A stretch of 64,000 nucleotides of DNA from Escherichia coli 042 (GTDB taxonomy: Bacteria; Pseudomonadota; Gammaproteobacteria; Enterobacterales; Enterobacteriaceae), in NCBI RefSeq assembly GCF_000027125.1, contig NC_017626.1. One strand, written 5' to 3'. The notes under the pieces are model-generated. The model made no database searches, had not been told where the DNA came from, and saw nothing but the letters and a program-made list of their open reading frames with translations. Positions 41,280-41,987 of this stretch are shown in pieces; within the stretch, counting starts at the first letter, position 1; each line of letters starts with the position of its first letter. A program made the position numbers and the translations under genes.

Positions 41280-41987
41280 TCAATAAAGAATCTTTATTGA
41301 TGATACTGGCACTGTAACAATCCCATTGAGAGAACGATTTATAACCACCCACTCATGTGGTTCAACCAACCAGGAGTTTACATGTTTTGAATCAATAAAA
41401 TCATGGCAATATAATATATCTGAAGCAGGTATATCCAACTCCAGTTTAACACGTCCGTGATATTCATCCGCATCATTAAAAGAATTCAATATATCCATCT
41501 CAAAAGAAATCACATCCTCCCCTCTTATCTCTGCTGTTTCTTTTAACTCAGCAATCGTATCTGCATACCTGCCATTAAGTTTCCTGCCTAACTGGATAGT
41601 TGTGATTTTCTTTTCGTTGCAGCATCGCTGAGTATGTTCATATATAGCCATCACTTCCTGGCAAATACAATCAACTTCTATATCACTCAAAGAATTATAT
41701 ATGTCCATAACTTTTCTCTCATAATGCAAAAAAAGATTAAATATACGATAATGAGAGAGCAAATCAGAATTTGTTACTTTCGTTAAGAATAAAGTTAATA
41801 AAACATAACCTACCTGTTTACTACCATTAAACCCAATAAAATCACTTCTCACATCTCCTTTCAATCTACCAGTTCCGATACAACGAGCTAACAATTCACT
41901 CCTGACATTATATTTACCATTCATATTCACCATACTATTCGAAACAACAGACGAACATCCAAAAGCGCTTAAACACTCCACAAACAA
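41280..41987 (-). CDS. hypothetical protein (AT-rich orphan)
   Basis: 235-aa ORF in a visibly A+T-rich segment; no recognisable motif. Confidence 0.4.
   Translation of the reverse strand: MFVECLSAFGCSSVVSNSMVNMNGKYNVRSELLARCIGTGRLKGDVRSDFIGFNGSKQVGYVLLTLFLTKVTNSDLLSHYRIFNLFLHYERKVMDIYNSLSDIEVDCICQEVMAIYEHTQRCCNEKKITTIQLGRKLNGRYADTIAELKETAEIRGEDVISFEMDILNSFNDADEYHGRVKLELDIPASDILYCHDFIDSKHVNSWLVEPHEWVVINRSLNGIVTVPVSSIKILY

Follow-up and report, generated by a model that had tools for sequence, protein, structure and literature searches.

The 64,000 bp stretch of Escherichia coli 042 DNA analysed here (assembly GCF_000027125.1, contig NC_017626.1; hereafter the window) contains an AT-rich gene on the minus strand, between 41280 bp and 41924 bp. 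We lean towards the view that its 214 amino acid product is a stand-alone, divergent R-S-E-type ADP-ribosyltransferase (ART) that takes part in conflicts between hosts and mobile elements, probably as a defence-island effector. The family to which it belongs would represent a sequence-divergent, stand-alone branch within the ADP-ribosyltransferase superfamily, for which a role in conflict is probable. This view was reached from the predicted fold, a set of near-invariant residues, the conservation of the gene and the genomic contexts of its homologues.

Predicted fold and candidate active site

The AlphaFold2 (AF2) model of the protein (m2c0444f4d469), which was generated from a 65-sequence alignment, had a pLDDT of 94.8 and a pTM of 0.91. 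It consisted of an N-terminal helical subdomain (codons 1–104; 41613 bp–41924 bp, minus strand), with helices at residues 10–16, 38–51, 58–63, 66–77 and 81–104, followed by a beta core of eight strands and one helix (codons 105–214; 41283 bp–41612 bp, minus strand). The latter is the part that resembles the catalytic core of ADP-ribosyltransferases, and the split beta core with preceding helices is the arrangement of the ART fold. The best structural matches of two independent models were R-S-E mono-ADP-ribosyltransferases, these being C3bot2 and the Listeria ART Lmo0066 (both with a score of 5.7), VIP2 (5.6), Certhrax (5.3), HopU1 (5.2), C3stau2 (5.1), SpvB (4.8) and Tre1 (4.7). Lower matches were to C3larvin, an iota-like toxin, an Rhs toxin domain, XopAI, Vis, ART2.2 and ExoS.

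In the C3/VIP2-type R-S-E layout, the arginine lies on strand 1, the serine motif on strand 3 and the glutamate pair after an ADP-ribosylating turn-turn (ARTT)-like loop, before strand 6. Residue conservation was computed over the 123 family members with a length of 200 amino acids or more. A conserved arginine was found on the first core strand (residues 109–116); this residue, R114 (codon AGG; 41583 bp–41585 bp, minus strand), is the candidate NAD-binding arginine of the R-S-E triad and was arginine in 121 of the 123 members. The candidate equivalent of the S-T-S motif is N147-S148 (41481 bp–41486 bp, minus strand), located on core strand 3 (residues 146–150), where the family pattern was N, T or S followed by S and then by F, W or Y. 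The asparagine was present in 101/123 members (T in 12 and S in 6) and the serine in 113/123. The candidate catalytic glutamate pair, E188-P-H-E191 (41352 bp–41363 bp, minus strand), spans the end of the loop at residues 174–190 and the start of the strand at residues 191–195, which is core strand 6. E188 was found in all 119 members without a gap at this position and E191 in 117, with aspartate in two more. Conservation was also high at D144 (115/123), Y155 (118/123) and N196 (115/123). The serine to glutamate spacing in the family was 40–43 residues, and that of VIP2 and iota toxin is similar.

A single hint of an ART came from sequence comparison. The sole Pfam family to be matched repeatedly was DRAT (PF07357), with matches from 7/65 members at full length (best E value 7e-4) and from 3 of 63 when the core alone was used (best E value 0.029). 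Other results weigh against the assignment of the protein as an ART. All of the DRAT matches were below the Pfam threshold and the E. coli protein itself had none. Profile searches of the PDB with full-length and core-only alignments returned no solved ART, the matches obtained being chance ones to a GINS subunit and a coiled-coil protein. Comparison with T4 ModA and ModB using hhalign, with single sequences and with an 8-sequence profile, gave a probability of <1%. The glutamate pair has the form E-x-x-E, where E-x-E is canonical, and the serine motif is N-S, where S-T-S is canonical. The proposed placement of the candidate residues around a cleft was deduced from strand order alone. Furthermore, the E. 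coli and Serratia proteins form a clade of short members; relative to most of the family, they are missing approximately 20 residues at the N-terminus and approximately 60 at the C-terminus.

One weak hhalign alignment paired R114 with R73 of ModB, a pairing that is statistically meaningless, and a Foldseek search of the PDB gave nothing significant. No curated ART model and no solved-ART sequence identified the protein as a member, as there was no Pfam or NCBIfam match above the cut-off. This agrees with an earlier sequence-only reading of the window, in which no domain could be recognised: Pfam, NCBIfam, PHROGs and PADLOC contained no match at normal thresholds, either to the protein or to 65 relatives. 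Neither the gene nor its relatives belonged to a named family in these four resources, database names were all 'hypothetical', and a search of the literature library revealed no paper naming the RefSeq accessions. We regard the structural evidence for ART identity, which derives from predicted models, as moderate.

The model could alternatively represent an ART-derived fold without transferase activity, with an NAD- or nucleotide-binding or a structural role such as those of IcmQ, domain 2 of anthrax lethal factor and the CNF domains, or else an NAD+ glycohydrolase. We consider this improbable. The arginine, the serine and both glutamates were near-invariant in the 123 members and the omega value of the core was 0.07. 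A catalytic site would be expected to show this combination of near-invariant residues and strong purifying selection on the core; in inactive derivatives such residues are usually lost.

Conservation and selection

The sequence-only reading had described the gene as an orphan, while allowing that it might be conserved nowhere. A HMMER search of the whole library (1.84 billion representative proteins) revealed 123 homologous clusters at E ≤ 1e-3, with 77 at E ≤ 1e-10, and the gene was found to be conserved in E. coli, in Serratia and across these clusters, so that the description as an orphan can be discarded. A search of the reference-genome contigs yielded 3 loci only. Most family members were approximately 300 amino acids long, with a range of 200–350 amino acids and rare members of approximately 550. 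Two of the latter, P0078 and P0107 (loci L010–L012), had an extra N-terminal region of approximately 260 amino acids without a recognisable domain, and their contexts were uninformative.

Of 5426 complete E. coli genomes, 474 (approximately 9%) contained the 901 bp tract made up of the gene and its two spacers, in the pheV island; these included lineages of sequence types (ST) 410 and 95. Two main allele groups were found, one of 320 genomes with at least 99% identity and one of 112 genomes with 80–90% identity, and the reading frame was intact in 460 genomes (coverage of at least 80%). In an ST95 strain, a 4.4 kb block (37682 bp–42067 bp of the window) encoding the gene, the downstream ibrA, ibrB and perC genes and two hypothetical genes was retained at 93.6% nucleotide identity. 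The sequence upstream of this block differed, with an Old-family nuclease gene in place of vasL. In one ST95 locus (L017, 10138 bp–10783 bp; E. coli ST95-32) ibrB was annotated as frameshifted, and the ART-like gene and ibrA were intact. Between the E. coli alleles the gene had a synonymous divergence (dS) of 0.114, with a ratio of nonsynonymous to synonymous divergence (dN/dS) of 0.35, and ibrA had a dS of 0.125; the similarity of the two dS values indicates that the linkage of the gene with ibrA is as old as the divergence of the alleles.

Serratia marcescens MSU97 encoded a 63% identical orthologue in the equivalent tRNA island, on the speC/mltC side. The Serratia orthologue is located downstream of an intact type VI secretion system (T6SS) cluster that ends in ImpA_N/VasL, with the Kiwa defence system in between. 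The vasL and impA pieces were conserved at the DNA level between E. coli and Serratia, and the linkage of the gene with vasL/impA was common to both. Comparison of the E. coli and Serratia genes gave a dN/dS of 0.16, falling to 0.07 in the C-terminal core. The gene is under purifying selection in both E. coli and Serratia.

A spurious or decaying, functionless ORF within an AT-rich spacer was considered and rejected. Such an ORF would be in keeping with the annotation as 'hypothetical' only, the AT-richness, the absence of a standout promoter and the occasional copies broken by insertion sequences (IS1 in U1 and IS21 in Aliarcobacter). It is refuted by conservation and selection, namely the 460 intact frames, the dN/dS well below 1, the 123 clusters and the confident AF2 models, and we assign it a negligible probability. 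The two IS insertions into family genes were independent of each other, the IS21 copy being found on an Aliarcobacter plasmid (L005, 4102 bp–7534 bp) and the IS1 copy in E. coli U1; they may reflect a cost of carriage or a target preference for AT-rich DNA.

The window was 100% identical to strain H3, the RefSeq annotation of which was used here, and the gene, comprising 214 codons and a stop codon, corresponded to WP_001013661.1, a 'hypothetical protein'. Its status as a protein-coding gene is supported by the list of ORFs, the homologues and the purifying selection. The 235 amino acid ORF reported in the sequence-only reading (41280 bp–41987 bp) is indeed present on the minus strand, with a TTG start. 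It is, however, the maximal frame only, the annotated start being the ATG at 41924 bp, and the 21 extra N-terminal residues had no counterpart in the N-termini of homologues. An alternative ATG start at 41933 bp on the same strand would give a protein of 217 amino acids.

The upstream AT-rich spacer (116 bp; 41925 bp–42040 bp, minus strand) extends from the vasL stop codon to the start codon, with the sequence GGTGA located 4 nucleotides before the ATG. It contained no strong sigma-70 match, and the promoter scan did not exceed shuffled sequence. The AT-rich spacer between the gene and ibrA (140 bp; 41140 bp–41279 bp, minus strand) contained no terminator-like site, with the terminator scan likewise not above shuffles, so that transcriptional read-through into ibrA is possible. 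A tblastn search with family proteins detected no remnant, downstream of the stop codon, of the C-terminal extension found in longer homologues; matches beyond the ORF were at noise level. The AT-richness of the locus may hold the gene silent, and the sequence would be a natural target for H-NS in E. coli.

Base composition and acquisition

The sequence-only reading had also proposed that the ORF and its flanks are A+T-rich compared with their neighbours. Analysis of 500 bp windows confirmed this, with a G+C content of 0.33–0.35 within 41000 bp–42000 bp and of 0.50–0.54 in the flanks. The tract formed by the gene and both intergenic spacers (41140 bp–42040 bp) had a G+C content of 33.5%, compared to 50.2% for ibrA and 52.1% for vasL (chi-square p = 1e-18), a significant difference that disposes of the possibility, left open in that reading, of a composition no different from that of the flanks. 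The ORF itself had a G+C content of 34.0% and a third-position G+C content (GC3) of 0.28, against GC3 values of 0.54–0.58 for ibrA, ibrB, perC, vasL and impA_N. Equally AT-rich 645 bp windows made up 1.9% of the 64 kb. The limits of the low-G+C tract fitted exactly to the ibrA start codon at one end and the vasL stop codon at the other. The gene is therefore compositionally foreign, and its history differs from those of ibrA and vasL.

The further suggestion of a separate and possibly recent acquisition was supported in part only. G+C content and GC3 support a distinct history; a recent separate arrival is not supported, in view of the dS similar to that of ibrA, the purifying selection, the linkage to vasL/impA in Serratia, the absence of insertion repeats and the low G+C throughout the family. 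No repeats marking an insertion were found flanking the tract, and there were no Rfam matches between 37000 bp and 46000 bp. In homologue loci of other hosts, the G+C content of the gene was below that of its surroundings in 11 of 11 cases (for example, 0.35 and 0.53 in Serratia and 0.40 and 0.61 in Pseudomonas), which makes low G+C a maintained trait of the family and not a timestamp of arrival. To infer recent acquisition from low G+C is thus unsafe at this locus.

Genomic context of the family

All-against-all comparison of the genes surrounding family members revealed no neighbour family shared by at least 3 of 17 loci within 3 kb (phmmer), and none among 12 loci (blastp). No candidate hydrolase, macro-domain, immunity or antitoxin gene was found beside the gene in the compared loci. 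The family member is a solitary gene without a conserved partner, and copies were also found alone amid housekeeping genes, in a gcv/glyA region and in the luxS region of Hydrogenovibrio.

Defence genes adjoined the gene in a number of these loci. In E. coli, Shango was found on one side and, depending on the version of the island, a NERD+UvrD gene or an Old-family nuclease gene on the other; in Serratia the neighbour was Kiwa, and in Providencia rettgeri the gene was found in a P4-like island with type I hsdM/hsdS and GmrSD. On four metagenomic (Logan) contigs (L022, L023, L057 and L063) the gene was located 27–36 bp after a gene encoding a 1091 amino acid helicase-nuclease. In L022 and L023, the loci that reach past the gene, it was convergent with genes for a short N6-methyltransferase and an S subunit, within Tn7-like cargo, and McrBC and an AAA_15 ATPase adjoined it in one of the four helicase-nuclease loci. 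The helicase-nuclease was 82–90% identical across the four loci, with ResIII/DEAD/SWI2_SNF2 domains and weak matches to PADLOC PbeA and type IV restriction endonuclease models. These loci may represent an unusual restriction-modification (RM)-like system with an accessory gene. In L069 the gene was preceded by a canonical HsdR (PADLOC REase_I, E = 0), and in L024 Wadjet JetC/JetD and a type IIG RM enzyme were present. A Ter/VWA/PP2C cluster adjoined the gene on Enterobacter IncF plasmids. A further 118 metagenomic neighbours included Septu, SoFic, HipA and McrBC, together with a relaxase, TraU and TraG_N. Defence neighbours were thus seen in E. coli (both versions), Serratia, Providencia, L022/L023/L057/L063, L069, L024 and the Enterobacter plasmids; other copies had contexts on integrative and conjugative elements (ICEs), on plasmids and among housekeeping genes. 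No family member was found in 50,697 phage genomes (INPHARED) or in 2.9 million IMG/VR contigs, and the family was rare in plasmids (8 of 72,556).

The repeated position beside RM and anti-phage systems, together with the absence from phages, makes a defence-island effector in such conflicts the most likely role, and the RM-embedded and chromosomal copies that are under selection favour it further. There was, on the other side, no match at all between the protein and the defence models of PADLOC-DB v2, the defence genes being neighbours only, and several contexts fit a role in counter-defence as well. The main rival explanation, which we hold to be unlikely, is that the protein serves conjugative elements in establishment or counter-defence. 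The ART would be made early in a new host, or transferred with the DNA, and its targets would be proteins of host defence or transcription, in the manner of T4 Alt/ModA/ModB, with the E. coli, Serratia and Providencia copies being leftovers in decayed islands. ICE homologues were found near the type IV secretion system (T4SS) genes TraU, TraG_N and DUF2859 and near genes for SprT/ArdC-like metallopeptidases. On an Agrobacterium plasmid, genes for a zincin-like peptidase and for a large ParB adjoined the homologue; in a Vibrio element, the homologue was found within a series of small ORFs sharing one orientation, with umuDC and a gene for a large ParB. The relaxase, TraU and TraG_N genes among the metagenomic neighbours also agree with a conjugative role, and ARTs predicted to modify the host are carried by conjugative elements (PMC5512222). 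Speculatively, the basic helical C-terminal extension of most members could serve as a T4SS signal. Against this, many copies are not conjugative, being found as Tn7-like cargo in RM loci, in P4-like islands or alone amid housekeeping genes, and the chromosomal copies of E. coli and Serratia are kept by purifying selection. In addition, an H-Y-D active site and not R-S-E characterises the ARTs known from conjugation loci (PMC5512222), and no copy could be placed at an origin of transfer or in a leading region. Below this rival in likelihood come, in descending order, an inactive ART-derived fold, an orphan toxin of the T6SS and a non-gene. A homologue on a Pseudomonas plasmid was found beside imuA-imuB-dnaE2.

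The island of E. coli 042

A tRNA-Phe gene (27125 bp–27200 bp) was followed by an integrase gene (27398 bp–28663 bp), which places the ART-like gene in a genomic island of the pheV type. Read from high to low coordinates, the minus strand carries the NERD+UvrD gene, the ImpA_N/VasL remnants, the gene itself, ibrA, ibrB, perC and two hypothetical genes. IbrA had PAPS-reductase and DUF3440 domains and IbrB was ParB-like. The T6SS remains (42041 bp–43388 bp, minus strand) consist of two genes, encoding ImpA_N (146 amino acids) and VasL (307 amino acids). These are homologous to the last gene of the intact S. marcescens MSU97 T6SS cluster, and are thus the decayed end of a T6SS in the E. coli island.

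This position directly after vasL/impA remnants in E. coli, and after an intact T6SS cluster ending in ImpA_N/VasL in Serratia, would be expected if the gene were an orphan T6SS effector, that is, an ART toxin for neighbouring cells left behind when the T6SS decayed. The presence of the T6SS ART toxin Tre1 among the structural matches points the same way. We nevertheless judge this explanation to be very improbable. There was no adjacent immunity gene and no linkage or fusion to PAAR, VgrG, Hcp or an adaptor; Kiwa separates the gene from the T6SS cluster in Serratia; and in E. coli ST95 the gene was linked to ibrAB and not to vasL. T6SS genes were found in none of approximately 30 other loci examined, so that the adjacency to vasL/impA is confined to two related loci.

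An obligatory link between the gene and ibrAB was also considered and rejected. The ibrAB genes were present in 2165 of 5426 E. coli genomes, at as many as 4 sites in one genome and with 76 of the sites on plasmids, compared to 474 genomes for the gene, and other ibrAB copies had different upstream genes. The link of the gene with ibrAB is local.

Several further features of the island were observed. A complete Shango system is encoded between 32011 bp and 37835 bp on the plus strand, comprising the TerB-N protein SngA, the ATPase SngB and the helicase SngC (PADLOC E values of 5e-100, 4e-186 and 1e-277, respectively), for which the RefSeq names were generic. The 595 amino acid NERD+UvrD helicase (43782 bp–45569 bp, minus strand) matched the PADLOC candidate defence model C3a187 (E value 4.5e-140) and is labelled '3'-5' exonuclease' in strain H3. 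The ibrA-ibrB-perC genes and the two hypothetical genes occupy 37883 bp–41139 bp on the minus strand; the hypothetical genes encode 214 and 107 amino acids, with G+C contents of 0.43 and 0.41 respectively, and belong to no family. A microcin H47/M-type cluster is present in the same island at approximately 50000 bp–58000 bp, encoding a colicin V-family bacteriocin, mchF, an HlyD-family exporter, mchB, mchI and mchS3, and AT-rich stretches were found near it at 48701 bp–50800 bp and 55801 bp–59000 bp. Genes for a phosphoethanolamine transferase and an outer-membrane protein (28982 bp–31373 bp, minus strand) lie directly after the island integrase.

Proposed mechanism and significance

The conservation, selection, fold resemblance, residue motifs and contexts described above are observations on a real gene, and from them we infer catalysis, a target and a role in defence as opposed to counter-defence. 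The protein would be a cytoplasmic, lone mono-ADP-ribosyltransferase with N-terminal helices and a beta core, close in size to T4 ModA/ModB. NAD+ would be bound in a cleft lined by R114, N147-S148 and E188/E191 at the end of the ARTT-like loop, the bond between nicotinamide and ribose would be cut, and the ADP-ribose would be moved onto a macromolecular target. The target is most likely a protein arginine, which is favoured because of the analogy with E-x-E enzymes and the weak similarity to DraT. The gene would act without a dedicated partner such as an immunity gene, an antitoxin or a hydrolase. As there is no antidote, the target would be foreign, or else activity or expression would be gated. 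The effector could modify a component of the invader or shut down the infected cell. The unnamed family travels as a single low-G+C cassette in Proteobacteria, where its members are found on islands, as cargo of transposons, on ICEs and on plasmids.

A bolder version of the defence-island proposal, which we put forward as a conjecture with the odds against it, is that this partner-less R-S-E ART family is a single-gene anti-phage or anti-plasmid effector, carried by approximately 9% of E. coli, that in several lineages is wired to RM as a PrrC-like guard and fires when RM is disabled. The repeated placement of family members in or beside RM loci offers a lead on layered immunity. ARTs are common in conflict systems, and an RM-associated lone ART family in approximately 9% of E. 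coli is noteworthy. If the ART assignment is correct, a 'hypothetical' gene found in hundreds of E. coli genomes of clinical and avian origin would encode an NAD-consuming protein modifier that sequence annotation has missed. A partner-less R-S-E branch would also join the conflict ARTs, which are known mainly as toxin–immunity pairs, toxin–antitoxin pairs, secreted toxins and phage enzymes. If the protein were inactive or unrelated to conflict, the gene would be an ordinary piece of island cargo.

Comparison with known systems

ART-PolyVal and Tox-ART-HYD2 are ART domains found on conjugative elements and phages that are predicted to modify host proteins on entry; ART-PolyVal has an H-Y-D active site and is located inside giant multidomain polyvalent proteins (PMC5512222). 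Some members of the present family have neighbours similar to those of ART-PolyVal (an ArdC/zincin peptidase, ParB and SNF2). The family differs in having R/S/E residues and in being nearly always single-domain, and there was no Pfam match to ART-PolyVal. T4 ModA, ModB and Alt are lone R-S-E ARTs without a cognate antidote, which serve a mobile element as tools for reprogramming the cell (PMC5512222). They are similar in size to the protein described here (200–207 amino acids compared to 214). Profile similarity to them (PF26816) was not detected, with hhalign giving <1%, and the family, unlike these enzymes, is absent from phages.

Tre1-Tri1 of the T6SS, DarT-DarG, CmdTAC and ParT-ParS also employ the ART fold in bacterial conflict, and Tre1 was a structural match. 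Each of these systems depends on an immunity, antitoxin or chaperone gene next to it, whereas this family has no conserved neighbour. DraT is a cytoplasmic ART of bacteria that is specific for arginine and modifies a bacterial protein. Its Pfam family (PF07357) was the one matched repeatedly, including by the core alone, at sub-threshold level. A DraT/DraG pair was not recovered, as the best E value was 7e-4 and no DraG-type hydrolase, ARH, macro-domain or nif context was present in any locus. PrrC is an anticodon nuclease encoded by a single effector gene within the type I RM locus EcoprrI. The likeness to PrrC is one of context, in that members of this family are found in or beside type I RM loci (L022, L023, L057, L063, L069 and Providencia); fold and chemistry are unrelated, and a guard relationship to RM would be pure conjecture by analogy.

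The best structural matches were to the C3/VIP2/iota/Certhrax/HopU1 group, which corresponds to the Alt/VIP2 clade in Aravind's classification. The predicted N-terminal helices and beta core are shared with this group, as is the order of the arginine on strand 1, the candidate serine motif on strand 3 and the candidate glutamate pair after a long loop. There was no detectable sequence similarity to the group, and the family has N-S in place of S-T-S and E-x-x-E in place of E/Q-x-E. Family members are also without a secretion signal, a B-component or a delivery domain, and would be cytoplasmic products of single genes on mobile DNA. Having failed every sequence-based test of membership, the gene appears by its predicted fold and its residue pattern to fit the R-S-E ARTs, that is, C3, VIP2, Alt/Mod and DraT.

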